Below are positions 17,692-57,014 of a DNA stretch of 57,014 nucleotides, one piece after another; within the stretch, counting starts at the first letter, position 1; every line of letters begins with the position of its first letter. Under the pieces are notes generated by a model that saw nothing but the letters and a program-made list of their open reading frames with translations, was not told where the DNA came from and made no database searches. The stretch is taken from positions 1-57,014 of the IMG/VR virus record IMGVR_UViG_3300005805_000106; one strand, given 5' to 3'. Source of the stretch: a virus (Duplodnaviria; Caudoviricetes). The translations under genes were made by a program, and so were the position numbers.

Positions 17692-20600
17692 ATGAACGAA
17701 ATGTTTGAATACAAATCAACTTCGATTGGTGCTGGTGATTCAAAGTCGGGTGCAATAGATATAGATAATGCTCAGGGAATAGTTGAGTGTTTTGTTGCTG
17801 GCATTGGAAATAGGGACTCGGTTGGCGACATTGTTGCAACTGGAGCATTTACCAAGAGCCTTCAGCGCCGAAAGCCACGTGTTGTTTGGGGCCATAACTG
17901 GAATGACCCAATCGGAAAAGTCCTGGAAATCTACGAGGTTCCAACCACGGACCCGCGGTTGCCGATGAAAATGAAAATGGCAGGGATTGGTGGTCTTTTC
18001 GCAAGGGTCCAATTCAACCTGCAATCAGAAAAGGGCAGAGAGGCGTTCGCAAACGTAGCATTCTTTGGTGAGGAGCAAGAATGGTCAATTGGATACAAGA
18101 CCCTTCGTGCCCAATTCGACCAGAAATCGCAAGCAAACGTCATCTATGAGCTTGAGCTTTATGAGGTATCTCCTGTTTTGCATGGAGCCAATCAGCTAAC
18201 TGGGACTATTTCCGTTAAGGCTGACACAATGCCTGGAGCCGTGGTTGAGATGGATAACCCCGGCCCAATGGCAATCAATAGGGCTGAGATGGAGACACAG
18301 CTATCGCAAGTCATTGGAGCCAAGGTATCTGTCATGGATGTCAATGACGACATGGTTACTTTTGCCAGACGTGAATCCGATGGAAATGTCGGAAGATACA
18401 AGTGCCACTTCAACCACAATAATGGAAGGTTCATGTTTGGCGCTCCACAGCGGATAGTTGTAGTAGCACCAGCCCCACAGGCGCCAGCCCCACAACAGGG
18501 AATGCCTAGCGGTACGCCACCGATGCACAGCACAATGCCACGCGTTGGCCCTGTTGTAATGCGTCCCACACAAATGCCAGCTATCCCCGTAGCCATTAAA
18601 CCCGGCCCGGACGGAATGACAATCGTTCCTCTTCCCCCAGTTCAGTATGACAGCTCGGACAGTTCCGGAAGAAGCCCAGATTTTGATGCCAACAATCTAG
18701 ATAAAGAGGAGTCAGACCTACGTGACGCCCTATTGAAGATTGTGAAGAGGCATGGCAAGTTCAATCAGGACTCAGAGGGTGTGTGGGCTGGATATAAACC
18801 AGCAGCACAAAACCCGGTATCAGGAATAGGCGTGAAATGTGCTAACTGCGTCTTCTACCAGGGTGGTTCGAGCTGCAAGATAATCGACATGGAGATTGAG
18901 GCTGAAGGAAAATGCAGATTTGCCGTAATACCAAACGGCGTTGTAAAGGGTGACTTTGCTTCAAAAAAGAGTTTTGAAGTAGCGCAAGAAATAACCGAAG
19001 ATGAGTTCATAGCAGAACTAGAATTCAAATACCCAGGAGAACTTGCCGTTGCAGCGCTTCGTGGGGCGGTTGGAATGAAGAGGCGCCGGCGTCGTAGGTT
19101 TAAGAATCTGGCGGAGTTTGGTATGCCGGACGACGGAACGGAAGAAAAAGCATACTGCATCCCCGTAGCACCAGAATTTGCTTTCCAGGTAAAGCAGGCT
19201 CTCGACCCAATTTTTGACTACCACTATGCAGAGTCGTTTGTTGACCCAGAGGGAATAGTAATCACATCCGGTGTTACGTACGATTTGATTGACGCCGTAG
19301 ACACAGCGCTCGACAATTTAAAAAAAAAAATATTAAATGACAATGGCCTAGAGGAAAAAGCCCTCGGCTACAGGCTTGGAAGGGCGCTCGGTGCCCGATT
19401 AATAGATAGACCGAATCTCGGCGGTCGACGTGGTGGGTTTGGCGGTAGAGGTCTCGGGATGCCAAACGGCGACCTTAACCCCAAAACAAGACGCGACTCA
19501 AACCTAAACGGAATTATTTTCGACAACATTCCAGGATGGGAACAGCCAGACCCGACACCAAATGACCCCGGTTCAATCAATAACCCAGACCCATCAGCGG
19601 AACAATTAGTTGACTCCGCACGAGATGCGGGCCCAGGAAAACTTTCTTCCGGCGAAATAGGTGGAAAATTCAATACTGAAGGAATGGACCCAAAGATACT
19701 GGCGCGCCTAAACAAGCACCTTGATGAGCGCATTAGGTATGAGGGTCAAATAATGACCAACCGCGAACTTTATGAAAATATAGGAGTAGGTAAAGGCAAA
19801 TACGGATACATCACGCCAAGTGGAAAAACAAGCACAAAATACAAAATTTACGCCGATATGGACAAGGGTTCATATTGGGAGGTTCCAAAAGTTGTTTATG
19901 ACTCGTTTGTTCCTAATTCAAACATAGATACAGACGAAACAGACAAAAATATTACCTCTGCTGCCCGGCCGGATAGAATTAGCGACAGACTTGCATCCGG
20001 CGGACCACAGGCTGCCTATGCGCAACGCTCAAAATTTGATACAAGAAATAGCAAGCTTGCTAATGAAATGTTTTGGAGCCCTGAAAATGGTGGAACGGTT
20101 TCCGTTACCGACAAGGACGGAAAAGTACGTAAATTCACTGGTATCGACTATGAGCGTGCCAGAAAAGCCGGCGCGGCCGCAATTGATAAAGATGACGGCA
20201 TAGATGATTTCATCCGCGAGTTGAGCGGTACGGCAAAGGGGCAGCCCGACCAAAAACCAAATCAAATATCAGATAAGTACAGAAACTACCTAGACAAACT
20301 TCCCAACGAGCGCACAGAAGAAGAGAAAGTTTATTTTGACGGCGCACTGCATAAGTACGCCAAGAGATTGGCGTCGGGTCAGAAGACCGAACTTACGCTT
20401 AAAGAGGGAGAGGAGGCGATAAAGACACAGTACGCGGAAATGGCTGCAGCCGTGCTGAAAGACATGCAAGAGGCAGCAAAAAGTAAAAACAAGAAAACAT
20501 GGAAGACGCCATGGAGAACTATGTTCCTAGGCGTACGAAACCCAACGACAAACAACAGGGCATACGAGGGCTCCAATAGGGTTGCGCTTGCCGCGGTGGC

Positions 20601-23600
20601 AAGAGCGCGTGGATACCAGACAAATAAATGGGCTGGTGCAGCACAGTGGAAGGCGATGGGTGGGAAAATATCGCCCAGCGTTCTTGAAAATCGCGGTGTT
20701 GTAATTCTTGCTCCAGATAAATGGTTAACTCCGATTACGGATAATAATGGAACGGTTATAGGTCAAAAACGCGGATTCCATCCAACTGTCGTATATAACG
20801 TCGCCGATGTTAAGGGTCTTGCGCCCGAGATGTACGAAGATAAGCCATTAGACAATCTTTCTGAATCAGAACGTGTTGAGCAGCTAGAAGATGTAATTAA
20901 GGAAATTCAGCAAGCAACCGGAATGAGATGGCAAGAATCTGGCCAGAGTGCATACTTTTCGCCGGTTGCAGATGAAATTAAAATGCCACCGTTTACAACT
21001 TTCAACTCTCCCCAAGATTTCTATGGAACCCTATTTCATGAAATGGTTCACTGGACTGGCCATACAACGCGCCTGAACAGAAAAGCAATACAAGATATTG
21101 TTAATACTGGTTCAATTGATGATGCGACGAGGGGTTTCGAGGAGCTGGTGGCAGAAATAGGTTCCGTCTTTGCGATGGGCCTTCTTGGTCTAGAGCCAGG
21201 AGTCAGGGAGGACCACATTCCCTACCTCCAGCACTGGATTGCGCATTTGCAAAATGACCCAACAGCGCTTGAGAGGGCAATTCAACTAGCGCAGCAGGGT
21301 GTCGACTATTTGATGGACCGCTCGCCAACACTGCGTCGTGTTGCTGGCAAGAGAGATAATGAAAGAAAAGGCACATCTGGATTCATCATCGATACGCCAC
21401 TCACCGGCAGAAGAGAACTGCCAGATAAGTGGTGGGAGAAACTCAGCATTGAAGCCAAAAAAATACCTGGCCTGCAGAAACGGCACAACAACGTCGAAAG
21501 CATCAATGACCCAGAGCAAAGACCGCAAAAGAAAACAAGAACCGTCAAAGGTGCTGGCTCAAAAGCAGAAAAAACCAAGAGAAACATCGAGCGGGCGGCA
21601 AAATCCGCGGCTGACGAAAGAATGTCAAGCGGAAGAAACTGGCAAGATAATGTTTCAAATTCGCCAACACGCGATGACGACGGCAACGTAATTGACGACC
21701 TCGGGAGACTTGCCAGTGGTGGAACTGGCCCAATCAAGAGCGTCGATGGTGACCCAGAAAAAGATATTGCGCGCTTACCGGAAGATTTCAGCTTCCGTGA
21801 AATGCATGGCGTCAGATATGAGCCATCCGCAGAACAGAGAGTCATATCGGAAATTGCTCTTGGGTTGCTTTTTGATAAAAAGAATCCGAAACGCATAATG
21901 GCAATTAGTGCTGGCGCCGGTACGGGCAAAACAACAACTCTGCAAAATACGATGATGGCCCTTAAGCATGAATTCTTGCTTCACGATTCCCTATTCCGTG
22001 CTGGTAATGAAAATAGATTAGACAGAAAACTAAAATATCTAAAAGACAAGTACGGAATTACCCCAAGAGTTAGCAAGCCAACGGCGGAACGCGGTAGCGA
22101 AGAGTACTTTCAGCAAATAACAGCTTTTAAGAACGACATCATTCAGCTCGCAAGAGAAGCCGGATTTAACCCAGAGCCAAATGGGTACTACACGGTTTTC
22201 AACCGTGATGCACAGGGCGACGCTGCCCCCAATACGCCTGATAATACAGGCGTTGCAACGGTATCTAAATTTACGTGGTGGTCAATGATGATGGGCCAGT
22301 TGGACGAGAAATTCGGCCCCGAACTCAAAGAAAAATTAAAACTAATGCTTCAACGCGATGTGCGCGCTCGCACTTTTGAAAAAGGTCCAGATGGAAAAAT
22401 ATTAATAGACCCAGCTACTGGAAGAAGGGTGTATAAAAAATTTGAAGCACCGCACAAAACTGAAAAAAACCCAGACGGCACGCCGAGAATTGTGGTCACC
22501 AATGGACTGCCGGCAACTCCAGAAGAACTCGGCTATCAAGATGTTAAGAATCAAAGCACATTTATAAACCCCCTACGCCTAGAAAGTCGATTCGGCATCT
22601 CTAGTTCTGAGAAAAAGTGGAGAACAGATAGAGTTGTCGAGGCGCCGAGCGAATTTCCCGCCATTGTTGAAACAACGAAAAAAGGGCCTCGCGGCGGAAC
22701 GGAAAAAATTAGACAGCTAGAAATGGTTGACAAACTAACACCCAATGAATATGTTTATGCGCTGAGAAATGCGCTAAATAGATTCATGAACAGCGAAGAT
22801 AGTGAAATTAGTGCAAAACACTTCATACCGACCGGTATGTATAGAAGACATGAAGTTGATTCGCCAAAAGACGACCCCACAAAAGCCCAGGATTACGACT
22901 GGATAGACGAAAAATTAATACCGGACTCTTGGGTAAAAGATGCACAAGAGATGTGGTCGCTATATATAGACCCAAATTCAACAGTGCTACCGAATCAAAA
23001 CATTGTGGACAAGCTTTGGTCTTTATCTGACCCCGACCTCACGTCCGACCCGGGCTTACTTGGAAATACACCCGGAGTAGACCTTCTTGATGTAAACCTA
23101 CCAGGCACATTCAAGATAGGCGACATAGTGGATAGGGGGGACGGAAAAACTTGGGTTGTCAGGAGCATAAGTGGTGCCGCCGGTGGAGACCAAAAAGGAA
23201 ATGTATCGAAAAAAAATAAGGTTCAAATAGCCGTTCAATATGGAACAAAAGATAATCCACTTGGTGTCTTTTATATAGACGAAGCGCAGGACCTAAACCC
23301 GGCAATTGTATCTGTCTTGCAAAAACACGCAGGAAAAATAAACCTAATCCTTGTTGGTGACGACAGACAAAAGGTTTATGGATTTAGAGATGTTGTTAAC
23401 TCAATGGCCCTTGTCCCGGCTGATTATCGTCCGGAAATCAAGGAGTCACGGCGTTACGGTTCAACAATACAAAACCTAGCGAACCTTGTACTCGCGAATG
23501 AAAACCTAGAAGACGAACGAGATGGAACAGAAGGACCATTCAAGCATGTAATTGGTTTAGCAGAAGCAGTAATAGAAAAAGATTTTGATTTTAACTTTGA

Positions 23601-26600
23601 CCATATTGCAGACCCGGAAGAGGCAAGACAGGCTCGCGTAGAAAAATTATTTGATAACGACGGAAAATACCATGAAAGAAGGTTGGAGCTACTCACGGAT
23701 GCCGTTTACTCACAGCTGACATTTTCCCCCGATGCCACCCTTGACGAAAAGAAACAAAGACTTGCCGAAATTCAGCAGGAGTATGGGGTAGCGCTTAAAT
23801 CAAAAGGTGGACAGGGTCAAAAAACAATTGACTTAACAAAACTTAGTGATGATGAGATAAATAGCTGGTCGGAATTGCGCGGCACCGAAAAACAACCACT
23901 TCGCCAAGTAGTGCTTGGGAAAATAAGCGCATACATAAACGAGTCAACAAAAAGTCTATATGAATTATATAAAGAAACTCAAAACGAGACGGATGATAAA
24001 AAGAAAAAAGTAGCCGAAGATGCTTTCGCAAATGAATTACGACTAAGAAAGAGAATCCTGCTGGATGATGCACGGGGAACAATAACAGATGACCCATATG
24101 TTCGACATGATGCAATTCTTGCTGCTACAAACGAGGGGGTTTTAGCAGAAGCAATACTAGCAATGAGCTCAGTTCCGCTTCGCTATGACACAAATGGAAA
24201 CATCATCCCAGCAACCATAGCAATATCATCCACAAAACATGCAGAGATGATTGCATGGATTGACCACATGAATTGGGTACTAATGGTGGAAAAGGGCATA
24301 CTTACTAAGGATTCTCCAAAGCCAAGGAAATCTGAGTACATAGGTGGAATATGGGACTTCGGCGGAGTAATGCAAAAGGCAATGCAGGGTGGTAAAGATG
24401 CTGCACAACACCGCACGCTTCTTAGCCTCTGGCAACAGGGGATAGAAAACCCGGATGACCCCGACAATCCCCTCATCCCGGCGGGGGCGCCACTTTCCTA
24501 TTGGAGAGATTTGCTGGCACAGTCCCCAAGGGATGTGGCTGATATTAATCAGAAATGGATTGAGTGGGCAGAACAGAACCCTATTACCGTTCCCGGTAAG
24601 CCCCCCAAAGCAAGAACGCCCCTTCCGGAAATAAAGGGCAGTTTAGTTCCAGCAAGAAATAGAAGACACGGACTGGAATTTGTCAAAGAAACACAGGATA
24701 CGTTGACAGAGAAGTCAATGTTAGCAGCGCCAGCCAGGGCGGGCGGTGGACGTGGTCAGGGTGGTGCACGTACGCGCGGAACTGCTTACCAAATTTTCGG
24801 ACCGGGAAAACAACATAGTTCACTCGAAGAAATTTCATGGAAACTTGAGCTAGATGAAAACAATAATTGGACAGGCGCAGTAATTGTTTACGGACGCGGA
24901 CTACAGGCAATCAACCGGACTGAGCAATTAGACCTTCCAGTACAAATTATCGAAGACCCACAAAATCCCGGGTCGTACATCAGAAAAAGCTTAATAACGA
25001 CCGCTCAGGGCATATATAGAAAAGACTTAATAGATATTCTTGAGAGAACAAATTACTTTGAAGACAAAGTAAAAGTCGTGCCGAGAATAGTACCTAGCAA
25101 AAACATGAAAAATGCAGATGGTTCCGGCTCCGCCCCAGCGGGTTACTTTGATGGCGTCCGCATACAGGGAGCTGATGCTAAGGAAACAGCAGAAATATTA
25201 AACCGTCTGAGGGGCGCTTTAGTTAAGTCCGCAGAAGAAGTTAATGCGGACACGGAGGTAACAACATTTCAGCTATCAAAAGGACGGGAATGGAATTCAG
25301 TAAAACTTGGCGAGGACTTTACCCTTGTTCCCGGTCCTCGGCTTGAAAAGGACAATCCGTGGGTAGAAAAAATCGACCCCGAAGGACCAGACACCCCAGA
25401 CAATCTTAGATGGAAGATAGACCCACGCACCGGAAAACCGCTAACTGCGGAGAAAAGGAGGGAGGGTCTTCACAATGCATATGTTGCAATCACAAGAGCA
25501 AAACGGCGCATTGACCCTGGTAGTGCGATTTCCGGTTTGGTTTTAGCAGAAAAAGTTACGCAAAAAGAAAAGGAAGCAATAAAAAGAGCGATAGCCGACG
25601 GAAGGATGGCTCCAGAGTTTGATATTCCGGATAATTTAAATAATCCGTATGATGGTGGCGAACAATCTAAAAGAGTTCTAGTACCACAATTTGACCCAAA
25701 CATTGATGCCAGGGAGGCAATTGATGGAGAAAAGTGGTTTGGCACACCAGACACCACTGACGTTCCACGTCCAAATGATGATGATGAATTGGGTGAGGCT
25801 GACGAGGACACTTCAATTGGAATTTCTGATATAGATGAAAATTTTGATATGTTGGAGCAAGAGCGTGAGTCCGAGTCAGCTTCGGATGTGCAAGTCGACG
25901 AAACCGATATAGACGATGATGAAATCGGAAGGCTGTCGTCCGGAATATCCGTTACACAAAATAACCGCGCCGACAGAAGAAGACGCGTCTATTCACAACT
26001 ACGTCGTGGGGATATAGAGTACCAAACAACAAGACCGGGCCAGAAGCGCGTAGTTGGAATGGGTGAAAAATTAAGAGCGTTCCTAGATATAAGACCATTG
26101 AACTCTGACGACCGCGCCGACCGTGAGGCAGCCCAGTATGCCCTGGAAGAGTCAATGCAATTGTGGGACATATTTAGACAAACAGGAATTGCCCTAGACG
26201 TTGGCCCAGCCGATATAAGTCCAGAATCTTCAGCGAGAAAAAAGGCCGTAAGAGATGGCATAGAGGCTGTTGGCGAATTAATGCGTGGCCGTAAGGTCGC
26301 CATTGGAAATATATCTACAAATAATAATCCAGAAAATCAATCAAAAGACAAATGGATGCTACCGGTAGACAAACTGCTTGAAGCAATTAGATTCCCCACT
26401 AACTGGAAAAAAACAGAAACAGAAACGGCCAAGAGAATTGAATATCTACCCGGGTATGTATCACCGGATGACAAGAAAAACAGGTCTGATGACTTAGTAG
26501 AAACGCAATCAAGAATAGACGTATCTGAGTCAAGAAATTTAACCCTGGACGAGCTAGCAACAATGCTTGGTATATCAGGAAAAGATAAAGAAAGCAGAGA

Positions 26601-28020: not shown

Positions 28021-28184
28021 CCAGGGCAAATTGTCTACTGCTATAGACATTTTTAATACACTATTGATGCTAAACTAAATGGTGATACTGCTTATCATTG
28101 CTGCGTTATCGTGATAGGTTATACTTAAAGATATTTCACAACGTTTGTCATCACTGACATTCATTGCACAAAATCAGGAGTTCT

Positions 28185-29720: not shown

Positions 29721-29735
29721 TCGAGGGGCCCGCCT

Positions 29736-32700
29736 ATGACGGGTGATAAAAAAATAGATGGCGAGAGGGTAATTGTTTCGCCGCGACTGATGGCCCCAGA
29801 GTCATACTGCTGCCGCGACGTTGACCTCGTGGCTAAAACATTTCTTCAGTCTGTTAATGCTTCGCGTATACAGGAGCGCCTGAGTGCCGACATCGCAATC
29901 AAGGCACTAGAGGGAATGTCGGCTTTTGGTAAAAAACCAACATACGAGGATACAGATAATAGAAAACGCGATTTTACCGGCGACCTAGAGCCAGGCGTAA
30001 TTGCCGATGAAATGAACAATCGGTGGAACCCTTCTAAAACATATGAACCCGGGGACAAGCTTGTTATTTTTCCGTCATATGAGTCGCGCGAATCTATAAG
30101 CAACAAACCGAACTTTGGGTGGATTAGGCCACCCGAATCAAGCCCACGTTCTTTTGACGAGCTAATACGAAAATTAGAAAAACGTCCACACATACAGCTC
30201 ACAAGATATGACGTTGACCCCAAAACAGATGACGTTATAGAGGAGTCGGCAAAAATTATTGACCCGCTGTCTATTACGTCTGGCATGACGGCCGATGAGA
30301 GACGCAAAGCACTTGCAAAATATTCCCAAGTAAACACTAAGCGCCTGCCGGGTAGGACAATTGGGGAAAGATTTCCCGGCGGAAGTATAATAGGAAGAGT
30401 CGCGGCTGCGTTTGGAATTATTCGCGACGCACAAAACAAATTTCGCTGTCCACCCGGCACCCCAGCGGCAAATCAGTTCACTGACGCATTCGGCACAAAC
30501 TGTTTTGGTTTCAGTCCCACTAGATTTGCCCGTTTTGCAGCAAGACAGGCCGCACAGGCAACAGAAGACGGTGCCTTTTCCAAACTGCAAAATAGGGCTG
30601 AAAAGTTCTTTGATTTTCTATACAACGATAGGTGGGGGGTCGACGAGGCGGGAAGCGACCCTGCACGTTTAGCGCGAAACGCATTTTACGACTCGCTCCA
30701 CGGGGACAGATTTAAACCACCGGACTGGGCAACAATTGACGTACCGCCAGAAATGCGCCGTTTTAAGAACGGTGCAATTGAGGCAATGTCTAGAGATGCT
30801 GAGCTCGCAAGGAACATAAGAGAGCTAGGCGACGCGCTCGGAATAGTTACAACCGACGAGGAGCGGGCAACCAACGCCGATGTTCACAAAATACTAGCCG
30901 CGCTACGTCAAATCTCCGATGCATCTTCTGGCGAACAGGGCTGGGATATAAAAATTATCAATAAAACGAACGGTCGTCAGGGTGATTCCGCCCCCCTGAC
31001 ACCAGAAGAAGTCAGACGATTTGTTACAGCAAGAATTGCGAACATACCTGGAGTCCAAACATTATCGGCCGAAGAACGAGAGAGGCTCATCAAGGCCGAT
31101 ACCGCGAGATACTACGAAATTGAACGTGCGCTTCTTGAAACATTTGTGGGACAATTTCTTGAAAACCCAGCAATGGCAAGAAAACAATTGCAACAACTCG
31201 AATATGACTTTAACAGCGGGGACGAAGCGGGCACTGGAATTATTATTGCCCCCGGACGAAAAATCCCCCTAATAGACCCAGAAACAGGGGAACAGGTCCT
31301 AAACCCAGAAACTGGTGAACCGGCATGGATAGATGCGGGCTCAACTGGATTTTCTCAGTTTTCGGGCGTAATCCATATGAATATGGAACAAATCATGTCC
31401 AACACTGAGACGATGTTGCCAAAACTTCTCCCAAATCAGCGTCTTGCCGTTAGCGCCGTTGGTGCAGCAACAGACGCCGAAGCACGCCTTGCAGTAGCTG
31501 ATTTTATAATGAATTCATCGTATGCCGCCAGACACGTTGCCGGACTTGTTAACGGGCCACGGTCTTTTGCTAGACACATAGCACTTCATGAATGGGCCCA
31601 CTCTGTACAGCAAATGGCGTTTCTGTATGCAGTACAAAACAAGATTCGCACAGACGGTTTCATCGATATGCCAAGATACGATAAACGTGGCAACGTATCA
31701 TTCACGCGAATAACCGACATAAGACAACTTAATAATGCCGACTTAGCAAGGCTTATGCAAGATGTTGCAGATAATGTAAATGTTGCCGACATCAAGAATG
31801 CGATGGAAAGCATCAAGGACGTCGCACCACTGGCTGGTAATTATCCCGCTCTTTCCACTAGGGAGGGAAGCGAGGTCTGGGCACTTGAGGCAGCGGCAGA
31901 ACTTTGGGCCCTACGGGAAGCTGGACTTATTTACGGCGAAGACATAGATAAAGCACTTGAGTGGATGGACGACGTTGAGGCACAGTCTGCCGAAGAAGAT
32001 GCAGTTCGTCGGGCAGGGCTAGTAAAACGCCTGCGTGGCCTGTATGGAGTTGACGATGACTCCATTGACCCTGCTGACCCAACAGATGTTGGCGACATTG
32101 CGCCAGATGACCTCGATGCAATGGAGGCAGATGCAATCGCAAGAGAAGTAGCATCGAGACGGGACGAGCTAGACGTATTTGAGGCAGATTTTGCTGCATT
32201 TGATGAAGAAGAAATGTTTGAAGAGGCAGCAATAATTGGGGCGCAAATCGACTCAGCCCGCGCACGTCTTAAATCGGCAGAAGATGCCGCCCGCTCGGGT
32301 GGACCCGATGCTGGTGATATTGCAAGGATTGAAATAAATAAAGCGCGGCGCGATATTGATTTCTACGAGGAGAAGTACAAGAGGGCAGGAAAAGCGTGGA
32401 GAAAGAAGTACGGCATCGGCGCACGGTCCGAAATGGACCGTTTTGAAGAGAACGTTACAGCCATAAGACGAAGCCGTGGAATGTACGAACCAGAGGAGCT
32501 TGACAGAATAGCCAGAGAGGCACACCTTGATGACCTCAGGGATGGAATGTCAAAGCTTTCACCAGATGACATAGTTAAAAAAATTGTCGACCACAAAATA
32601 CTGATGTCGCGGATGGACAAAACATCTCCAGAAGTAGTTAAAGCCGCAGAAGAACTAGACATAATGAAGGGTGCATACATCGAGTCCCTTAGGTCAAGCG

Positions 32701-35700
32701 GTGATTCCAGAACAAGGGCGCGGATTGGAAAAGAACTAGACGAAAAAATTGAAGCCATTCTTCACCCAGCCCCCAGAGAAGCTCGCATTTTTGATACAGC
32801 CGATGACGCAAAAGACATGGCAAAAAGAGAACGAGCATCTATTGCCAGAAAATTGACACCAGAACAGCGGAAAGCAATAGTTGAGGCTGGTGATTTTCAA
32901 TCAAGCGACATCATTCAATTTATTGATTCTCCGCAAGCTGTTAGGCGCGGTCGTGCTATAAACAGAAGAAATGCACGACTCAAGCGCCTTGGCTTACCAG
33001 TGGATACAGCGTCGGCTGAAGAAGCAGCGTTAGATGACCAGGTAAAAAATATATTAATACCGGTACTTGAGTCAATGGAAGTTTCAAGGGCCAGGGAGCC
33101 AATGGACGTTGAGGCGGTTGTTGAGTTTGCACCACGCGCATTTGAAGGAAAAGCAGTCGGAAAAGAAATTGACATTGAACAGTTTGTAACGGGAAGGGTT
33201 ATCACAGATGAAACCGTCCCAACACGCATCCCGCGTGGTGAGGTTGCCGATAGGGAAACATGGCGACGTAAAAGGCGAGTAATTATTCAGGTCAACGAGG
33301 GTGATAGGGGGCTTTTCCCCAAAGCAGGAAAAGATGCTGAACAGTCATTTGTTATGCCACCAGGAAGATTGCGTGTAGTCGGTAGAGACAGTGATGGAAC
33401 AATAAGGGCGGAATTTGTATCGCAAAAAAGCACAGATGAAGTGCTTGGAACAATGCTAAACGCCATTGAAAGTGGCGATGATGATGTTATCTGGAGAAGG
33501 GGACAGCGCCGAAGGGTTGGCACGGTTGTCAGCAAATACACGTCTGGACGGCTCAGCTCTGGACGAACAATGGACGGCGGTAGAGATAGGTCGGGCGAGG
33601 AAATACGTTCTACAAACAGGGATGTACTTGGTTCGTTAATTGACTCTGGTGGCTCATTTGGTGAGTCATTCGACGAATTTTCATTGGGCGACGAGTCCGT
33701 TCTAGACGAAATTGATACAGACCCACTACGGGGGCGTTTATTTGATGAGGCAGATGAATACCTTGATTCATTGTTTGGCGGGTTTACGAATAGGCAAAGC
33801 CGTGCAAGATTAAGACAGCAACGTTTTGAAAATGGCATAAAAGAAGTAGACCGAACATTGTTACCCGGTGGTTCACTAGCTGGGTCAGAACAGATACAGA
33901 AACAAATTGAGGATGCAGCATTTGTTCACCACATGGGTCTAGATAGAAAAGTTAGAGTAAGAATAAATGATACAGAGCTCAGAAAGCTGGGCGAAACTGG
34001 CTCAATTAGGTATGGTCAATCGGCACAACCCGATAGTGGCATGTCGCGCAGAATGGCGTCGAGAATCAGGTCAGCCGAAGCTGGCCGGCTTTCATCTGGA
34101 AAAACATCACCCGTACCCACAACTGTCGAGGAGCGAAAAAAACGAGTACAGCTGACAGCCGAACGCGCCGCTGGAGTTTGGTCTGAAATATCGAATAAGT
34201 TAATTGAGCTATCAGATAGACAGCCCGCTGGTGGAAAATTGTTGACATTCGACGATTTAACTCAAGAACAAATAGATGAAATATTGAAGGATTTACCATC
34301 GGTAAAAATCCTCCCACAAAAATCAATCGGTATGAATAGTGAGCGCATTTACAAAACCGATGATGTGCCAACAGCCCTAGCCCTAATGATGCATGGTCAC
34401 CATGTCGAAATTAAATCAGGAGGAACAATCCTGACGCAACAATCACAAGAAGAGTTGGAGAAAATAGTTGAGAGAAGTGCCAAGGACTTAATATCAACTG
34501 AATCGCGACCTTGGCGCGAATGGCGCGATGCAGAAATTGAAAAAATAGACGGGTGGGCCGACAAAACAGATTCAGAGAAAGCCGCTCTTATAAAAGAGCT
34601 GGAAGACAATTTTGTTGATAAATTTCAAGCCGACCTATGTAAGCTTTATAGCCCGGAAACAAACATATTCTGCTCTGAGCATCTCGGTATAAAGCGCGAA
34701 GATATGCCACAAGTCAATGGCCGGTCACTTGGGTCTAGCACAATGGCAATTCGAATGCTCAAAGATGGGCGTGCCGCCGGTAAGTGGGAAGCAAAAAAGG
34801 GAGACATATCTGAACCGCCATCATCTTTTGTGGTTCGCTATAAAGACAAAATTGATGCAGAAATTGCAAAAGAGACAACAAAACAAATTGGAAAAGGAAA
34901 ATTAAAACCAGGTGAAGAACTGAGTGAAAACCAAAAACGTGCAGTAATACATGCCGTAATGGGTGAAGTTCATAACGTTCGTAATGACAACGACCCGGCC
35001 AAAACACAACAAATAATGCGTGGTAATACCGAAAGTGGTTTTGCATCCCTTAGCACAGAAGAAAAAGAATGGCTTTACGCAAATGCGAACTGGCAAAATA
35101 CAGAAGTAAACCTCGAATCGCAATTTATTGACTACCTACGCCAAACAATAAAAACAGATGACGGCCGGAATGCGGTAATACGTAAAAGTGTAAAAATGGA
35201 GGACTTGAGCCCATCACAGATGGAGCTAGTCGGTTCAAAGGTTGACGAAACAAACCAACAGATACTTGATGAAGTAGATAAAACTTTAGAAACACTAAAA
35301 GCGGAAGGTTTATCTCCCGGAACGCCAGAATATATAGCTCGGTATAGGGAAATAATGAACAAACAATGGTTCATGCAGCCGATTTTGACAACGAGCGACG
35401 GATATATATTAGATGGACATCACCGCGCAATAGGAATTACAGTAGCTAACCAAGTTCTTTCACAGCGGGGGCTTGAGCTAGAAATTCAAGTCAATGAAGT
35501 GCAGACAAATATTATTGAAGCGCTTACACTCGGTAAAGTTTTCCAAGACCACTGGGGCATAAAAGAAGCTCGACTTGGAATTGAGAGAAAATTCGAAGGA
35601 GACGCTTCTTCAATTACTTCAATAAACGAAGAAGACATAAATGCAAGCATGTTGCAGTTAGTTAACGACACACCATTGAGGGTGGATGAAAAATACGCCA

Positions 35701-37025
35701 AAGGGACATATGTAAATCCCAAATCTATCGGTTTGTCTGTGAGACAGTCTTATAGGGACCAGCAGGTTGGGCGCAAAAATACAGCTTCTGAAAGACAAAT
35801 AGAGAGGATGCTAGAACAGCAGTTTGCAAGAGGCGAAAGGGCGCCAGCATTTGCAGTAGGGGGAAGACTTTCAAGTGGCGCCACTGGACGCAGAACGACC
35901 GGTCAAACAAGGTCACCGATTATTGACGAATCAACTGGCAGAACCATGGGTTCTTCCTATGCGGACATTGATTTTATTATAAATGATGACGGCCCAAGAC
36001 AGAGGGGTACTGACCGTGGTCTTGGAAATGAATATAAGGTTAATCCAAATGATGACGCAATAAAAGCGTTAGTACGTGAATATAACCAGAGAATTGGAAT
36101 ACCAAAAAACTCTGACGACTCAAATAGGCCAGTCGTTGGTTATGTCGTCCATGGTTCACAACTGGCACAGAAACGTAAGGACGCACTTAAAGCCGGACGC
36201 GGAAACGTAAACGACGACGCAATTTTTGAGATTGGTGATAAGGACATAGTTGGAGACGGTCTTAGTGCGTTTGGCGAAATTGAATTAGTTTTACATCCGT
36301 CTGTTGCCAACAGAACCGCCTATGGTCGTGGAATGTCTGCGCGTTCATCCCATAGGCCAGTCTTGCTGAATTCAACCAACAAGGATGACGTGTCTGACGC
36401 TCTATTAAATTTTGACGGGCCAGATGGTAAACAAAATACAATAAATGCGATAACCGGTTTTAGCCGTTCTATTGAAACTGGAAATCGCTCAAAAATGAAC
36501 CAAGTAATTGGTAAAAATGGTGATGACGATATTACGCACGATGTATTGAGGGCTCAAATTTTGGGTGGATTTGATAAGGACGAAATAGTCCAAGTAAATT
36601 ATCCATTCTCCAAGATATCCGAAATGGCGGATAATGAGGACATTAGCGACATAGTTAATAATAAAACCATCGCATCCCGCCTAAGAGCTGCTGGATTTTC
36701 CCAGGAAGAAATCGAATACTTTTATTCAATGGGTCTAGGAAATAAAATAACCACGGAAAGCATGCTTGCGCTGAGGAGATACAGAACGGCAAAGCGTGTC
36801 GAAAAAGAGTTAAACGACATCGGATTCCCAAATGTAAAATTTGCTCATCCGGACGGAATAAACATAAACGACCCCCGCTCGTACAGAAAAAATGCATCTC
36901 CGTCCGATAAGGTTGAAAAAATACTCAATCAAAATATTGCCAGGGAAATAAAAGAAGAAGCAGAAAAATTATTAAAAGAAATGCGCAAACCCGGCATACC
37001 GCAACTAGTTGGAAGGTCGGCATAA
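29736..37025 (+). CDS. Giant polyvalent protein: zincin HExxH, degenerate ART-like, ParB-like, degenerate DUF3626-like domains
   Basis: HEWAH..EAAAE; VIIQVNEGDRGL..EQSFVMPPG; LSPSQ..PILTTSDGYILDGHHR; RPVVGYV..FGEIELVL..AQILGG. Confidence 0.7.
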   Translation: MTGDKKIDGERVIVSPRLMAPESYCCRDVDLVAKTFLQSVNASRIQERLSADIAIKALEGMSAFGKKPTYEDTDNRKRDFTGDLEPGVIADEMNNRWNPSKTYEPGDKLVIFPSYESRESISNKPNFGWIRPPESSPRSFDELIRKLEKRPHIQLTRYDVDPKTDDVIEESAKIIDPLSITSGMTADERRKALAKYSQVNTKRLPGRTIGERFPGGSIIGRVAAAFGIIRDAQNKFRCPPGTPAANQFTDAFGTNCFGFSPTRFARFAARQAAQATEDGAFSKLQNRAEKFFDFLYNDRWGVDEAGSDPARLARNAFYDSLHGDRFKPPDWATIDVPPEMRRFKNGAIEAMSRDAELARNIRELGDALGIVTTDEERATNADVHKILAALRQISDASSGEQGWDIKIINKTNGRQGDSAPLTPEEVRRFVTARIANIPGVQTLSAEERERLIKADTARYYEIERALLETFVGQFLENPAMARKQLQQLEYDFNSGDEAGTGIIIAPGRKIPLIDPETGEQVLNPETGEPAWIDAGSTGFSQFSGVIHMNMEQIMSNTETMLPKLLPNQRLAVSAVGAATDAEARLAVADFIMNSSYAARHVAGLVNGPRSFARHIALHEWAHSVQQMAFLYAVQNKIRTDGFIDMPRYDKRGNVSFTRITDIRQLNNADLARLMQDVADNVNVADIKNAMESIKDVAPLAGNYPALSTREGSEVWALEAAAELWALREAGLIYGEDIDKALEWMDDVEAQSAEEDAVRRAGLVKRLRGLYGVDDDSIDPADPTDVGDIAPDDLDAMEADAIAREVASRRDELDVFEADFAAFDEEEMFEEAAIIGAQIDSARARLKSAEDAARSGGPDAGDIARIEINKARRDIDFYEEKYKRAGKAWRKKYGIGARSEMDRFEENVTAIRRSRGMYEPEELDRIAREAHLDDLRDGMSKLSPDDIVKKIVDHKILMSRMDKTSPEVVKAAEELDIMKGAYIESLRSSGDSRTRARIGKELDEKIEAILHPAPREARIFDTADDAKDMAKRERASIARKLTPEQRKAIVEAGDFQSSDIIQFIDSPQAVRRGRAINRRNARLKRLGLPVDTASAEEAALDDQVKNILIPVLESMEVSRAREPMDVEAVVEFAPRAFEGKAVGKEIDIEQFVTGRVITDETVPTRIPRGEVADRETWRRKRRVIIQVNEGDRGLFPKAGKDAEQSFVMPPGRLRVVGRDSDGTIRAEFVSQKSTDEVLGTMLNAIESGDDDVIWRRGQRRRVGTVVSKYTSGRLSSGRTMDGGRDRSGEEIRSTNRDVLGSLIDSGGSFGESFDEFSLGDESVLDEIDTDPLRGRLFDEADEYLDSLFGGFTNRQSRARLRQQRFENGIKEVDRTLLPGGSLAGSEQIQKQIEDAAFVHHMGLDRKVRVRINDTELRKLGETGSIRYGQSAQPDSGMSRRMASRIRSAEAGRLSSGKTSPVPTTVEERKKRVQLTAERAAGVWSEISNKLIELSDRQPAGGKLLTFDDLTQEQIDEILKDLPSVKILPQKSIGMNSERIYKTDDVPTALALMMHGHHVEIKSGGTILTQQSQEELEKIVERSAKDLISTESRPWREWRDAEIEKIDGWADKTDSEKAALIKELEDNFVDKFQADLCKLYSPETNIFCSEHLGIKREDMPQVNGRSLGSSTMAIRMLKDGRAAGKWEAKKGDISEPPSSFVVRYKDKIDAEIAKETTKQIGKGKLKPGEELSENQKRAVIHAVMGEVHNVRNDNDPAKTQQIMRGNTESGFASLSTEEKEWLYANANWQNTEVNLESQFIDYLRQTIKTDDGRNAVIRKSVKMEDLSPSQMELVGSKVDETNQQILDEVDKTLETLKAEGLSPGTPEYIARYREIMNKQWFMQPILTTSDGYILDGHHRAIGITVANQVLSQRGLELEIQVNEVQTNIIEALTLGKVFQDHWGIKEARLGIERKFEGDASSITSINEEDINASMLQLVNDTPLRVDEKYAKGTYVNPKSIGLSVRQSYRDQQVGRKNTASERQIERMLEQQFARGERAPAFAVGGRLSSGATGRRTTGQTRSPIIDESTGRTMGSSYADIDFIINDDGPRQRGTDRGLGNEYKVNPNDDAIKALVREYNQRIGIPKNSDDSNRPVVGYVVHGSQLAQKRKDALKAGRGNVNDDAIFEIGDKDIVGDGLSAFGEIELVLHPSVANRTAYGRGMSARSSHRPVLLNSTNKDDVSDALLNFDGPDGKQNTINAITGFSRSIETGNRSKMNQVIGKNGDDDITHDVLRAQILGGFDKDEIVQVNYPFSKISEMADNEDISDIVNNKTIASRLRAAGFSQEEIEYFYSMGLGNKITTESMLALRRYRTAKRVEKELNDIGFPNVKFAHPDGININDPRSYRKNASPSDKVEKILNQNIAREIKEEAEKLLKEMRKPGIPQLVGRSA

Positions 37026-37028
37026 TTC

Positions 37029-41815: not shown

Positions 41816-43174
41816 ATGTCGGAAGACAAGGCCCGTATAGATGAGCTACAATCAGCTCTTCGTCAGAAGATGGCAGACAATAAGACCATCGCTGATTCAT
41901 TCAAGATTGAGGACGGCACAGTAGTCGTTTCCTCAGAGCAGAAGACAGCGTTCGACAAGAACATGCGTGACATCAAGGAAATCAAGTCACTGCTTTCAGA
42001 CCTTCAGGAGATGAGCGGTGTTGACTCTTGGTCATCACAGCCGGCCGGCGAGTCAGTCTCGTCAGCATATGCTGCTGCTGCCGCCGAGGCAACACAGCTG
42101 ACATCTCGTGAAATCAAGAGCATTGGCGCAATGTTCCTCGATTCACCAGAGTTCAAGTCACTTGCGAACGGCAAGAATGGCGCAAACATGGCCGCCCCGT
42201 GGCAGGCCGGCGTTTCGCTAACTGGCTACAACGTAAAGGACGTCTATTCAGCTCTGCCAACAACAGATGTCACCGGTAGCCGGCTCGGCTCGTTCGGCAC
42301 AGTTCAGCGCGACCCGATGGTAACGCCGCCAATGCGCACAAAGCGCGTTCGCGACCTCTTCCCGGTTCGCACCACAACTGCTGCTGTCATCGAGTACTTC
42401 CGTCAGCTCGGTTTCACCACGCTGCAGGCTGGTCATGGCACAAACTCGGCTTCTTCGGTTGCTGAGCGTAATGCCGGCAACACAGCGTTTGGCCTCAAGC
42501 CGCAGTCGTCCTTCGCCTTCGTTGGCGAGCAGGCGCCGGTACGCACCCTCGCGCACTGGGAGGCTGCACACCGGAACGTTCTTGCGGACGAGCCACAGCT
42601 ACGGTCAATCATCGACAACGAGCTCATGTACGGCCTACGCCTTCTTGAGGATAACCAAATCCTCAACGGCGACGGTGTCGGCGAGAACCTGCTCGGCGTT
42701 CTAAATACCCCGAACATTCAGGAGTATGCATGGTCGTCGGGTGCGGTTACCCCGGTTGCGGACACAAAGGCTGATGCTCTGCGTCGTGCCGCGACACTCT
42801 CATTCCTCGCGTACTACGAGCCGTCAGGCATCGTTCTGCACCCGAATGACTGGGAGGACATCGAGCTGACAAAGGACGAGAATGGCCAGTACCTCATCGC
42901 GGTTTCTGTCGCAATGGGTGGCGAGCCACGCGTCTGGAGAATGCCAATCGTCGACACGCCGGCAATGACCGAGGGCACGGCCCTGGTTGGTGCCTTCGGT
43001 ACCGGCGCACAGCTGTATGACCGCGAGCAGGCCAGCATCCGTATCTCTGAGCAGCACTCAGACTTCTTCATCAGGAACGCGATTGTCATCCTGGCCGAGC
43101 AGCGTCTCGCCCTGGCTGTCAAGCGCCCGGAGGCTTTCGTCAAGGTCGACTTCGACGAGGCTCCATCCGCCTGA
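41816..43174 (+). CDS. Major capsid protein (HK97 fold)
   Basis: Coiled-coil delta domain, VRDLFP, EDNQILNGDG, LHPNDW, LAEQRLALAVKRPEAFVK; AGGAG RBS; strongly biased codon usage. Confidence 0.95.
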   Translation: MSEDKARIDELQSALRQKMADNKTIADSFKIEDGTVVVSSEQKTAFDKNMRDIKEIKSLLSDLQEMSGVDSWSSQPAGESVSSAYAAAAAEATQLTSREIKSIGAMFLDSPEFKSLANGKNGANMAAPWQAGVSLTGYNVKDVYSALPTTDVTGSRLGSFGTVQRDPMVTPPMRTKRVRDLFPVRTTTAAVIEYFRQLGFTTLQAGHGTNSASSVAERNAGNTAFGLKPQSSFAFVGEQAPVRTLAHWEAAHRNVLADEPQLRSIIDNELMYGLRLLEDNQILNGDGVGENLLGVLNTPNIQEYAWSSGAVTPVADTKADALRRAATLSFLAYYEPSGIVLHPNDWEDIELTKDENGQYLIAVSVAMGGEPRVWRMPIVDTPAMTEGTALVGAFGTGAQLYDREQASIRISEQHSDFFIRNAIVILAEQRLALAVKRPEAFVKVDFDEAPSA

Positions 43175-44833: not shown

Positions 44834-44841
44834 TGGCAGGA

Positions 44842-46767
44842 TTACTTTACAGGGCAAGCCCCAGTAGCGCAATCATCAAGACTGAGCTCGCCAGAAAATG
44901 TGGACTGCACCAAGGGGACGGTGAAGTCGATTTTTGCTACCGTCTTCTCATAAACCTCTTTTGTTATCTCCTCGTACGGGGGGAGAACAAAGTTGTGGTC
45001 ACTGTGGAGAAGGAAAGACACAGACTTAACGCCTTTGTCGTAGTTCTTTGAGAGCCATTCCTTGATGCTGTCAAGCTCGTCTTTTCTGTAATAAACAGTT
45101 ACAGACACGGCATTGTCGGCCCACTCCGTCTGCATCTTCTTGACCCACTCAAGCTGTTCTACGGCGGTCATCTGCGATGCCAGAATTGACCCGTCCGGAG
45201 ACATGCAGGGGAACTCGACCACGTAACGCGAATGGTCCTCTCGGCCGTCTATGCCTATATCCCACACAACCTTGTAGCCCCTCTTCCTGCAGGCGTCAAC
45301 CAGGGGGTCGTTAGAGCCGAATCTGACCCGACGTATATAGTAAGGGGCGTATGCAGGGTGAATACCCGGAGTAACGCCAGGAAGCAGAGAGAGTGTTCCG
45401 GACGGCTGAACGGTGGTAATCCGAACAGACTGCGGGAATCCCATCTTCTCGCTATATTCCTTGTCGAAGTCGCGGAGATACTCGTATGTCTGACCCAGCC
45501 AGGCAAGCTGGCGCTCAGAAGACTGCAGTACGCCAGTGATGCTCTGACCAAGGCGGGCATTCTGTCTGACAATCGATGTTGTCTTTTCGTACGGGTATGG
45601 AAGCCTGGTGATGTGCTTCTGGGTCATATATAGCAAACGAGAGATGGACAGCAGTTGCTTGAGGGACTCGACGTTGGGCAAAAATATCGTTGCAAGGTTG
45701 CACGATTCACCGTCGGCTAGCGCAATCTCGGCACAGGGGTTAAAACCCTCGATTGATGGGTCTGGTCTCTTTTCGCCAAGACGGCCATATGTGCGGGCTA
45801 GTTTCCTGTTCACGAGCCCGTATGGTTCGCCCGAGCCGTCGTAGCCGCGCCACAGTTCGGTCGGAAGCTCATCGAACCCATCGGCGTAAATCGAGTTATT
45901 GCTGTTTGCCCTCCAGCCTGGAATGGAGCCAGTAGACCAGTTCTTTGCCCGAAGGAACAAAACATCATCGGGGTCGCCCATCGCTATTTGTGCCGACCGC
46001 CTAGACGAGCCGGAAACAACAATGCGACCAATAATGTTGCAAATATCCAAAACATCAACTGACCTCAGTTTCTTTCCGACACGGTTATCCATTACTTTGC
46101 AGATATCAGCTATGCCGTCGATTAAAGCTCCAGGCCCAGAGGCGGTGCCCCCGAAGGACTTGAGTGGAGCACCGTATTCACGGATGAGTATCGTGGAGTA
46201 ACTAAATGACTTGCCGGTGTCGAAGTATGACTTGAGCACGCTATGGAGTAGTCGACGCCAGCCCTGACGCGAGTCCGGCACGATTATGTCAGCATCGTTT
46301 GTGCGTTCATGTGTAATTGTCACCCCAGCCTTGACCTTCGGAAGGTCGTGAATTTTTGCGCGCTCTACGGAAAATCCAACGCCCCCACCAAGCATGAGGT
46401 AGTCGAAAAGAAACTCAAAGTCCTCAACTTTTTCAATGTTTGTGAAGTAACAGTTGTTCAGTGACGCTCCGCCAAATTTCTGCACCATTGGGGTGCCGAG
46501 CTGCCATAGCGCTCTACCACTCATTGAGCAACGCAGGTTATACATGTGGTCAAAAAGCTCTTCGGCCTCGCTCTGCGTGTACGGGACACCAATCTCGACA
46601 GCCCCATTTATGACCCGCTGAACAGTTTCGCCCCATGTCTCAATGGTGCCATTGTCTTTTGTTCTGCTATATGTACGCAGGAATACTATTTCTCCCATCC
46701 CGTTAAAACCCCACGGGATTGGGCGCTGGGCGTAATTTGAAACAAACGAGTCACTAATCATGTTCAC
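44842..46767 (-). CDS. nrdJ: Class II (B12-dependent, monomeric RTPR-type) ribonucleotide reductase
   Basis: SLNNCYF, GGGVGFSV, RRSAQIA, FNPCAEI, TTVQPSGTLSLL, C-terminal CATGACP. Confidence 0.93.
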   Translation of the reverse strand: MNMISDSFVSNYAQRPIPWGFNGMGEIVFLRTYSRTKDNGTIETWGETVQRVINGAVEIGVPYTQSEAEELFDHMYNLRCSMSGRALWQLGTPMVQKFGGASLNNCYFTNIEKVEDFEFLFDYLMLGGGVGFSVERAKIHDLPKVKAGVTITHERTNDADIIVPDSRQGWRRLLHSVLKSYFDTGKSFSYSTILIREYGAPLKSFGGTASGPGALIDGIADICKVMDNRVGKKLRSVDVLDICNIIGRIVVSGSSRRSAQIAMGDPDDVLFLRAKNWSTGSIPGWRANSNNSIYADGFDELPTELWRGYDGSGEPYGLVNRKLARTYGRLGEKRPDPSIEGFNPCAEIALADGESCNLATIFLPNVESLKQLLSISRLLYMTQKHITRLPYPYEKTTSIVRQNARLGQSITGVLQSSERQLAWLGQTYEYLRDFDKEYSEKMGFPQSVRITTVQPSGTLSLLPGVTPGIHPAYAPYYIRRVRFGSNDPLVDACRKRGYKVVWDIGIDGREDHSRYVVEFPCMSPDGSILASQMTAVEQLEWVKKMQTEWADNAVSVTVYYRKDELDSIKEWLSKNYDKGVKSVSFLLHSDHNFVLPPYEEITKEVYEKTVAKIDFTVPLVQSTFSGELSLDDCATGACPVK

Positions 46768-47214: not shown

Positions 47215-47849
47215 TAAGCGAATTCTTGCATCAGAAATCCCATACCATAAATGGCATCCCTGGCTTCGCTGAAGGACGTGTCAGACGCATCCCCGGATGG
47301 CGGTTCCATCAGCGATTTGCGCAGCATCGATGGGTAACGGGCTTGACGAATAAATTCCTCAGCCCGCTCGGGGTAGACAAGAGAATCGAGCCACTGAACC
47401 GTCCTGCCAGCCATCACCTTGTAGGGGGCCGCAACCATCGACACCGGACCAACCCCGCCTGGGGTTTGTATTGACGCGTGGTTTATGGCTATGCACTCCA
47501 GGACTGGCATTTCGGAATTTGTAAAAGCCTCAGCCAACTCAAGCCCCTTAGTTTTGTTTTCGTCAAGGGAACAATAGGCCTCGGATACCATTGTTACCGC
47601 ATCTATCCACCACATGGACCTGAGCGTGGAGCAAAGCTCATAGCTAGCAACGAGTTTTTCATCGTGTGTTTTTTTTGAAAGTTCATCATTCATTTGACAA
47701 ATTACGACTAAGGAATCCTCAATCCACCCAAGAAAGTGAATATAGAGGTCTTCGCCCGGCCCGTGTTCCTTGACTGCATCGTCTTTTGCCATCTGGGCAG
47801 ACGTCAGGGCGAGCGCCATTTTGCTTATGTCGTCAAAATATCCATCCAC
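47214..47849 (-). CDS. Hypothetical protein
   Basis: 211 aa; TAGTAT -10 element 7 nt before the GTG. Confidence 0.6.
   Translation of the reverse strand: MDGYFDDISKMALALTSAQMAKDDAVKEHGPGEDLYIHFLGWIEDSLVVICQMNDELSKKTHDEKLVASYELCSTLRSMWWIDAVTMVSEAYCSLDENKTKGLELAEAFTNSEMPVLECIAINHASIQTPGGVGPVSMVAAPYKVMAGRTVQWLDSLVYPERAEEFIRQARYPSMLRKSLMEPPSGDASDTSFSEARDAIYGMGFLMQEFA

Positions 47850-57014: not shown

Follow-up and report, generated by a model that had tools for sequence, protein, structure and literature searches.

A repeated motif in three giant phage proteins

The DNA analysed here, which we call the window, spans the whole of a 57-kb virus record (IMG/VR record IMGVR_UViG_3300005805_000106; 57,014 nucleotides) and encodes terminase, portal, HK97-fold capsid, sheath, tube and tail chaperone proteins. 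It also encodes three giant proteins, which we refer to as A (3442 amino acids (aa); 17692..28020, + strand), B (2429 aa; 29736..37025, +) and C (1699 aa up to the window end, which cuts the gene; 51916..57012, +; the homologues found are 3026–4703 aa long). A short motif of the form phi-[SA]-S-G, in which phi is a hydrophobic residue, recurs in all three and also occurs in a probable tape measure protein, the N-terminal 456 aa of which lie in the window (3..1370, − strand). The bearers of the motif are a group of large uncultured bacteriophages, and complete relatives of the window phage are 138–174 kb long. The host is likely actinobacterial, as the closest cultured capsids (47–48% identity) belong to Gordonia and Brevibacterium phages and one relative encodes WhiB.

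Protein A consists of a prohead protease, an assembly region, a header, six motif copies and cargo cassettes. Its HK97-type (S78) prohead protease domain covers aa 30–173 (17779..18210, +), with His68 and Ser132 invariant in all long homologues. The header (19351..19638, +; EEK-A, RLG..L..RLIDRP, RDxNxNG) lies between a K-type site, described below, and the first motif, and is paralogous to the start of C. The motif copies, all on the + strand, are KLSSG at aa 650 (19639..19653), RLASG at aa 766 (19987..20001), RLASG at aa 892 (20365..20379), which is the upstream border of a cassette with ArdC-N and MPTase-PolyVal domains (20428..21279, +), RMSSG at aa 1310 (21619..21633), RLASG at aa 1339 (21706..21720) and RLSSG at aa 2747 (25930..25944). 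A UvrD-type helicase cassette of ~1220 motif-free aa (21862..25527, +) lies between the last two.

Protein B has a fixed N-terminal part with a zincin domain (31023..31985, +; HEWAH at aa 618–622, nucleotides 31587–31601, with E718, E722 and G701-x-Y703), followed by cassettes and three copies of RLSSG at aa 1272 (33549..33563, +), aa 1451 (34086..34100, +) and aa 2044 (35865..35879, +), the last upstream of the C-terminal cassette. Protein C starts with a header (51985..52275, +; EEK-A ... RDPDNDGWADEGT) that runs up to TLSSG at aa 121 (52276..52290, +). A NUDIX domain (52444..52845, +) follows, then RLSSG at aa 804 (54325..54339, +) and aa 851 (54466..54480, +), a DEDDh exonuclease cassette (54601..55161, +), RLSSG at aa 1140 (55333..55347, +), a zincin cassette with the sequence HEYGH (56035..56049, +) and RLASG at aa 1509 (56440..56454, +).

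The motif is conserved at the protein level

All 14 of these copies, which had been listed in a first-pass annotation of the same DNA, were in frame; 13 fit the strict pattern [RK][LM][SA]SG and one is TLSSG. The 13 strict copies in the three giants (7570 aa) compare with a mean of 0.08 and a maximum of 3 in 2000 shuffles, and with 0.07 in local 30-aa shuffles. An unbiased ranking with correction for all k-mers placed RLSSG first among 5-mers and LSSG first among 4-mers. The other 36 open reading frames (ORFs) contain one strict copy compared to 0.13 expected. This copy, RLSSG at aa 35 of the probable tape measure protein (1254..1268, −), had been overlooked; taken alone it is not significant, yet it is conserved in homologues.

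The earlier suggestion that conservation acts on the protein also held. All 14 DNA 15-mers differ from one another, both serine codon families are used at both serine positions, and the DNA flanking the copies has a mean identity of 0.29. From these data we conclude that the motif is not a DNA repeat. We also considered that it might be a DNA-level by-product, either a recombination joint for cassette shuffling or a series of internal translation starts. Cassettes do shuffle at motif borders and one distant motif class is centred on Met, which speaks for this explanation. However, it has to contend with the differing 15-mers and serine codons, as well as with a central codon that is CTT, CTC, CTA, CTG or TTG in 13 of the 14 window copies and with the Phe that is common at this position in relatives. 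These observations largely refute it for the near motif classes, and we regard it as extremely improbable overall.

Motif copies lie at the borders of exchangeable cassettes

The domains that the first-pass annotation placed between motif copies were confirmed: ArdcN (aa 913–993) and MPTase-PolyVal (aa 1070–1196) and the UvrD-type helicase in A, and NUDIX (aa 177–310) and RNase_T/DEDDh (aa 896–1082) in C. The zincin assigned to the last bracketed cassette of C is readable as HExxH, although it has no Pfam match; none of seven cargo stretches searched, including both zincins (B and C), gave a significant family. Sixteen domain queries were then compared with motif positions in 226 A and B homologues. 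Only 40 motifs lay within mapped domains compared to 403 expected, and 38 of these fall in one region where the domain envelope probably spans a linker. Helicase spans (n = 38; 39,749 aa) contained no motif compared to 152.7 expected. Similarly, no motif was found inside 102 ArdC-MPTase units, while each of the 102 ArdC domains had a copy at most 60 aa upstream (median 8). When C residues 790–1160 were modelled with AlphaFold, confidence was high at about residues 70–350, which is the exonuclease cassette between its flanking motifs, and low at or beside all three motifs, the alignment being poor outside the domain.

When 251 homologues were cut at the motif, 1774 segments of at least 80 aa fell into 193 clusters, most of them unannotated. 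Among the 63 clusters with at least five members, many had a narrow length range and many different neighbours, and six clusters crossed protein families. The DEDDh cassette, at 285–289 aa, is found in 22 C and 4 B proteins, and a 342–371 aa cassette is represented by 26 C and 7 B segments. From these data we conclude that the motif bounds length-constant cassettes that move between proteins.

Protein A holds the polyvalent-protein hallmarks PF18818 (MPTase-PolyVal) and PF08401 (ArdC-N), as do 102 of 120 homologues. It joins many unrelated effector domains in one large polypeptide, is fused to the S78 protease and is encoded in the head module, in the order portal-A-B-capsid. The proteins that carry the motif are probably internal to the virion or ejected from it.

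In 11 of 38 loci the C-terminal cassette of B is encoded by a gene of its own, and in none of these 11 does a motif precede the domain. In the fused form, 71 of 99 full-length proteins have a motif at most 100 aa upstream. This bears on the possibility that the motif is a docking or handling tag, present once per cassette, that is bound rather than cut by a component of the packaging, chaperone or ejection-channel machinery. Such a tag would suit a motif that marks proteins expected to traverse the tail and that changes coordinately among them, and zincin-bearing virion proteins can stay intact (PMC5512222). On the other hand, the stand-alone cassette lacks a motif before its domain in all 11 cases, and copies lie between cassettes and are often doubled within one linker (205 of 1199 spacings are <40 aa). 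Moreover, a separate shared header, described below, already resembles a packaging signal. We consider a tag unlikely.

Two segments of B deserve mention. The C-terminal cassette (36066–37025, +) is well conserved without a Pfam match, and its stand-alone form is ~300–380 aa long (505 aa in one case). The segment preceding the first motif (33036–33440, +) resembles a degenerate ADP-ribosyltransferase fold by eye; it is kept in 106/106 B homologues and has no Pfam match.

The motif is present throughout the homologues and varies by lineage

The search with A gave 279 proteins, and the analysis used the 120 of them that were listed; 120 of 124 matches were listed for B, and 24 of 25 matches were of the C type, the remaining one being an A homologue that was excluded. 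The pattern [LMF][SA]SG occurred 3–21 times in each of the 120 listed A homologues (1319 copies altogether) and 6–15 times in each of the 24 C homologues. In the B family, 106 of the 107 nearest proteins, the window's own counted, carry the motif, 100 of them in three or more copies, while 12 of the 13 most distant have no motif of this class. With respect to enrichment over shuffles, location outside folded domains and presence in homologous giants, the computed results all agree with the first-pass annotation.

A logo of 1052 distinct sites reads [RGKS]-[LFM]-[SA]-S-G-[RKAG], in which the last two core positions (S-G) were set by the search pattern. The first position is R in 28%, G in 20%, K in 20% and S in 15% of the sites. 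The repeat described earlier as R-L-[S/A]-S-G is real, but its core is phi-[SA]-S-G and the leading R is lineage-specific. LSSG occurred 1041 times compared to 10.9 expected, and single-position variants were at most weakly enriched (LGSG, 44 compared to 12.6; LSSD, 32 compared to 10.7).

More distant lineages were reached through S78 proteins (129 new identifiers from the best 150 matches). Their most frequent repeated words were GMRS, G[FL]AS, GSRS, AGM[AS], TGRM and GPVGxM, with up to 26 copies, while several long and most short homologues had no repeat. A further class, [ILVP][STV]GxM[ASG], occurred 96 times compared to 2.0 expected in 64 ORFs of 20 loci chosen for showing it. Common to all classes is a Met, Leu or Phe between small residues, in most of them preceded by a Gly at a distance of one or two residues. 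Within a genome, A and B carry the same class. No repeated motif was present in the head region of the cultured relatives Gray and Cantare, in which no B homologue was detected.

The probable tape measure protein carries the same motif

ORF 3–1370 is labelled a probable tape measure protein from synteny, being a long gene directly after those for sheath, tube and tail chaperone, with neighbours that match annotated Gray and Cantare genes. It has no Pfam or PHROG match, tape measure families included. Motif density was determined protein by protein after sorting 203 loci by best match to window ORFs. It was 2.09 per 1000 aa for A, 1.94 for B, 1.73 for ORF 3–1370 and 0.69 for a mixed set matching C. 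No motif was found in capsid (0/58), sheath (0/22) or tube (0/17) homologues, and the portal value (7/52; 0.22 per 1000 aa) is at background level. We conclude that, among the families examined, the motif is limited to A, B, C and the tape measure protein. The first-pass annotation had described a system of three giants, which do carry the motif; the system is wider.

The homologue of ORF 3–1370 in locus L083 is 1666 aa long and has a second motif at aa 572–576. Across the family, 30 of 31 sequences contain the motif, with 19 of 31 having it at aa 26–60. The second site, at aa 546–615, is present in 25 of 26 sequences compared to 0.95 expected, and in 10 of 10 after 90% collapse. The motif class of the tape measure protein was then compared with that of the cargo proteins. 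Because a degenerate LSSG DNA pattern was too noisy for a census of five complete genomes (44 compared to 36 control matches in G001), only its in-frame matches within the tape measure gene were counted. In G006, GMSS lies near aa 556 and GMRS near 611, and GMRS is also found in the cargo of this genome. In G007, GLAS lies at 48 and GFAS at 630, and in G009 GFAS lies at 631; the cargo of both is likewise of the G[FL]AS class. In-frame xSGxM-type motifs occur at aa 44–58 and 553–582 in G019, G020 and G021, the last two being close kin, compared to ~0.02 expected in a 60-aa window, and the cargo of these genomes is of the same type. The residue before Leu was compared within the LSSG class in eight genomes with both proteins, several of them near-identical: where the cargo has S/A, the tape measure protein has S/A/G, and where the cargo has R/K, it mostly has R/K as well.

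Taken together, these comparisons indicate that cargo and tape measure proteins switch motif variant together across lineages. We conclude at the level of sequence that the motif is a strongly selected protein-level code at cassette borders that evolves in step across four genes. The presence of this code in the probable tape measure protein points away from simple prohead maturation. The first-pass annotation is supported in that the motif is conserved as protein, lies in linkers and recurs in homologous giants, and in its general idea of a processed cargo polyprotein. Its view of the core and of the breadth of the system was too narrow, and it had missed the tape measure copies, the lineage variants, the S78 protease at the start of A with its separate class of K-type sites, the lineages that lack the ArdC-linked zincin and the conserved zincin of B.

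At the C-terminus of the probable L083 tape measure protein (~9655–10152, +) there is an H-x6-D ... H-x-H arrangement with no Pfam match, suggestive of a cell-wall peptidase.

Apparent prohead protease sites are separate from the motif

S78 proteases presumably cleave at K-type sites, by analogy with the cleavage of HK97 after Lys. In A homologues, the K-type pattern E[EQT]K[ASG] was enriched 4.3-fold before the first motif and depleted, at 0.54-fold, after it, and a second K pattern was at 2.1 and 0.71, respectively. The second pattern was at 1.28 and 0.85 in B. The portal (15439..17592, +) has K-type sites without the motif, and the major capsid protein (41816..43174, +) has conserved K-type sites, with [VILFY]K[DGSA][VI][YFW] kept in 51 of 58 capsids.

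A and C share a header in which a K-type site is followed by RDxDxDG and then, ~45–55 aa later, by the first motif. The K-type site falls within the first 60 aa in 18 of 24 C proteins, and RDxDxDG is present in 19 of 24 C and, with the strict pattern, 51 of 120 A proteins. We infer that this header is a packaging anchor. Seven segments of A homologues (P0049 and relatives) group with the C-type header in one cluster (cluster 17), indicating that headers also move between proteins.

The S78 protease itself might have a dual specificity, cutting inside the prohead both at K-type sites and at phi-[SAR] followed by S. The largest cargo carries this enzyme in cis, each genome has one copy (5/5), the G-phi-R-S register resembles phi-K-S, and SPN3US gp245 cuts ejection proteins with a preference for Ser at P1' (PMC10052503). 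However, the catalytic segments are identical across LSSG, GMRS, GFAS and motif-free lineages, with clade-specific variation at positions 139–141 and 152. On a quick S78 tree the motif classes were clustered (10 changes compared to 40 when shuffled), which reflects kinship and not co-evolution. K-type sites and motif copies are found in separate stretches of A, the tape measure protein does not belong to the prohead, and capsid homologues never use the motif. A dual-specificity S78 enzyme is unlikely on this evidence.

Candidate enzymes and a model for processing

The observations above make it quite probable that the motif serves as a cleavage site of one kind or another. A cut could fall on either side of the hydrophobic residue or in front of the invariant Ser. 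Four other functions were rejected from the sequence. An MIO-forming A/S-S-G triad needs a fold, and the sites are in linkers; a lipobox needs a Cys, which is missing from the motif; the spacing is wrong for sortase signals (LPxTG/LAxTG); and 2A-like skipping is eukaryotic with a different consensus.

The zincin of B is the leading candidate enzyme. HExxH is conserved in 120/120 listed homologues, E718 in 109/109 and Y703 in 108/109. A structural model of the domain (predicted local distance difference test score, 86) best matched the catalytic domain of anthrax lethal factor in the PDB (1yqy; Z 9.8, root-mean-square deviation 4.8, 192 aligned residues). Pro-Pro endopeptidases gave Z ~6, and most of the top 20 structural matches were zincins. 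The domain also weakly matched phage MuF-like and capsid-maturation proteins. Foldseek searches found nothing in the PDB at E ≤ 0.001 and only unnamed clusters in the Atlas. A query with the window B zincin found it in seven of eight genomes; in the eighth, G011, a divergent HExxH protein sits in the same place. A distant B zincin query gave no match in five motif-poor records, which is uninformative as there was no positive control.

The ArdC-linked zincin, MPTase-PolyVal, is not the universal enzyme, since it is missing from 18 of the 120 listed A homologues, which keep 5–12 motifs, and from the complete motif-positive genomes G011, G018, G019 and G020. It was found in seven of eight genomes of one set and in one of 13 of another. 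Searches for Prp (PF04327), ClpP, C39_2, trypsin-like, S78_2 and C48 proteases, the families covered, found none in eight genomes, with positive controls.

A host protease that reads the motif, with variants that track host taxa, would act like the host Prp that cuts staphylococcal capsid and scaffold proteins. Such an enzyme could reach cargo and tape measure proteins alike, a host role in tail protein cleavage is cited by the T5 study (10.1101/2022.09.20.507954, from the title of a reference), and the Prp site F'A(S/H)KK and GFASR are alike on the prime side (PMC9405229). On the other hand, the non-prime Prp consensus Lxx[DN]LQ[FL]F is missing from our logo, the phyla with long L27 named in that review do not include the likely actinobacterial host, phage Prp was missing as described above, and the choice of R or S before L differs between close relatives while agreeing within a genome. 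We therefore hold a host enzyme to be very unlikely.

We propose instead that the motif marks a second protease site, specified by the phage, on proteins carried in the virion and read by a phage zincin, a reading for which we judge the prospects to be evenly balanced. In the first step, the prohead protease at the N-terminus of A would mature the head at K-type sites and free the cargo parts of A and C behind their shared header. This step is based on the Pfam identity of the protease and on the K-then-S cleavage of HK97. In the second step a different enzyme, most likely the lethal-factor-fold zincin of B, would cut the small-residue/phi/small-residue motif. This would free the cassettes (ArdC-MPTase, helicase, NUDIX, exonuclease, GNAT-like, zincin and others) as separate proteins and shorten the tape measure protein by cuts at ~aa 36 and where its helical part ends (~aa 550–630). 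As head and tape measure protein are assembled separately, the motif would most plausibly be cut during or after ejection, or at head-tail joining. A more specific form of this model is possible though doubtful: a two-protease relay in which the prohead protease loads and frees cargo chains, and a co-packaged zincin with a lineage-private code dices the three polyproteins, with the tape measure protein also being cut during or after entry. If so, dozens of effectors would be released and any new effector could be gained as a plug-in cassette.

Several observations weigh against the proposed explanation. The link between the motif and the B zincin is one of co-occurrence. Among 40 loci chosen from 124, those that support it are all 25 motif-enriched loci (at least three motifs, twice the shuffle), which have HExxH in a large non-protease ORF, and seven motif-poor loci, which have none in the part covered, with only L227 spanning portal to capsid; but seven others have HExxH with weak or no motif enrichment (L328–L330 without enrichment and three more weak), one more has weak enrichment with B not reached, and both this table and the motif classes use patterns set after the data were seen, in related and partly covered loci. 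A head-module HExxH without repeats is found in Gordonia phage Gray (gp27) and in Brevibacterium phage Cantare (gp11). Protein C has its own HExxH in 24/24 homologues and could be the enzyme instead, and the presence of MPTase-PolyVal in seven of eight tested genomes means that it is not excluded in near lineages. No lineage motif was found in the tape measure protein of G013, and that of G011 gave loose matches only, with no clear motif at the junction. The first K pattern is at 0.48-fold before the first motif of B, its N-terminal part, and at 0.33-fold after it. Finally, N4 virion RNA polymerase, ArdC and TraC1 are zincin-bearing yet packaged or transferred uncut (PMC5512222). The B zincin leads as a candidate but is not established, and we judge it somewhat less likely than not to be the enzyme.

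Other features of the window and its relatives

An acidic 518-aa protein (28164–29720, +) with many K-type sites is encoded between A and B. It is syntenic in nearly all relatives examined and scaffold-like, with a weak match to PHROG 80. The gene preceding that of the capsid (40937–41671, +) has two DUF3721 repeats and in some relatives is fused to proteins of 865–2763 aa, some with HExxH and without the LSSG motif. Between the capsid gene and C are a class II ribonucleotide reductase (44842–46767, −) and a 603-aa AAA_25 protein that is primase-helicase-like (49090–50901, +). An RCPxG...FTD..C segment is common to B (~30414–30490, +) and a 684-aa ORF (~38547–38620, +), and segments resembling it are found in large head-module proteins of distant relatives; it is possibly another capsid-anchoring module.

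The terminase large subunit is ~435 aa long in most relatives and 768–930 aa in L208 (2552–5020), L227 (5082–7385) and L242 (4650–7439), all on the − strand, where inteins are likely. Three contigs of metagenome-assembled genomes labelled Bacteroidia or Gammaproteobacteria (L338–L340) encode close S78 relatives and are probably phage contigs binned with those genomes.

Relation to known systems

Cutting of polyvalent proteins has been predicted since 2017, when autoproteolytic release by the zincin was proposed for those with MPTase domains (Iyer et al. 2017, PMC5512222); the available portions name no site. The motif predicts exact borders, points to candidate enzymes and comes in natural variants of specificity (LSSG, GMRS, GFAS and xSGxM), so that the question of effector release can be tested with synthetic genes. 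It also provides a catalogue, namely the 193 clusters described above, of likely injected effectors in cassettes bounded by the motif, and connects the handling of head cargo with the tape measure protein. The lineage variants suggest a family of sequence-specific proteases with differing recognition sites.

No description of the motif was found in the literature, mostly open papers, and the supplementary architectures of PMC5512222 could bear on its novelty. Among the papers listed none contained LSSG, RLSSG or GFASR, and the listed matches for GMRS appear from their titles to concern GmrSD. A repeat that bounds cassettes and is also present in a tail protein does not appear in the available portions of PMC5512222, PMC10052503, 10.1101/2022.09.20.507954, PMC12810830, 10.1101/2020.03.07.982082, PMC13434306, PMC9503650, 10.64898/2026.04.10.717836 or PMC9405229, which are also the basis of the comparisons below.

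Like the polyvalent proteins of PMC5512222, the proteins described here are giant, head-gene-linked and multi-domain, with ArdC-N, MPTase, helicase and other effectors. They differ in that assemblin-like peptidases are always C-terminal there whereas the protease is N-terminal here; no cleavage motif is given there, while here a repeat is common to three cargo proteins and a probable tape measure protein; and MPTase-PolyVal is dispensable here in four complete genomes. The virion polyprotein of crAss-like phages (10.1101/2020.03.07.982082) is likewise packaged and thought to be cut, with a virion zincin suspected. It consists of three fixed proteins including an RNA polymerase, with no repeat site described, whereas here up to ~26 copies bound exchangeable cassettes. 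In the heads of SPN3US and T4-like phages (PMC10052503) and in P1 DarA (PMC12810830), one short motif also occurs in many internal proteins. In those systems, head proteins lose N-terminal propeptides to the prohead protease. The motif described here is internal, differs from the apparent prohead-protease sites and reaches a tail protein.

As in T5 and lambda (10.1101/2022.09.20.507954), a cut in the tape measure protein would separate a functional C-terminal part, although no link to head cargo is described there and the site here is near the end of the N-terminal helical part. The L27-like motif cleaved by Prp in 80alpha (PMC9405229) resembles one lineage here in its F-A-S-basic prime side; its single N-terminal site, long non-prime consensus and host cysteine protease are not seen here. 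The code at cassette borders, which is shared with the probable tape measure protein, thus varies a known theme, that of polyvalent proteins.

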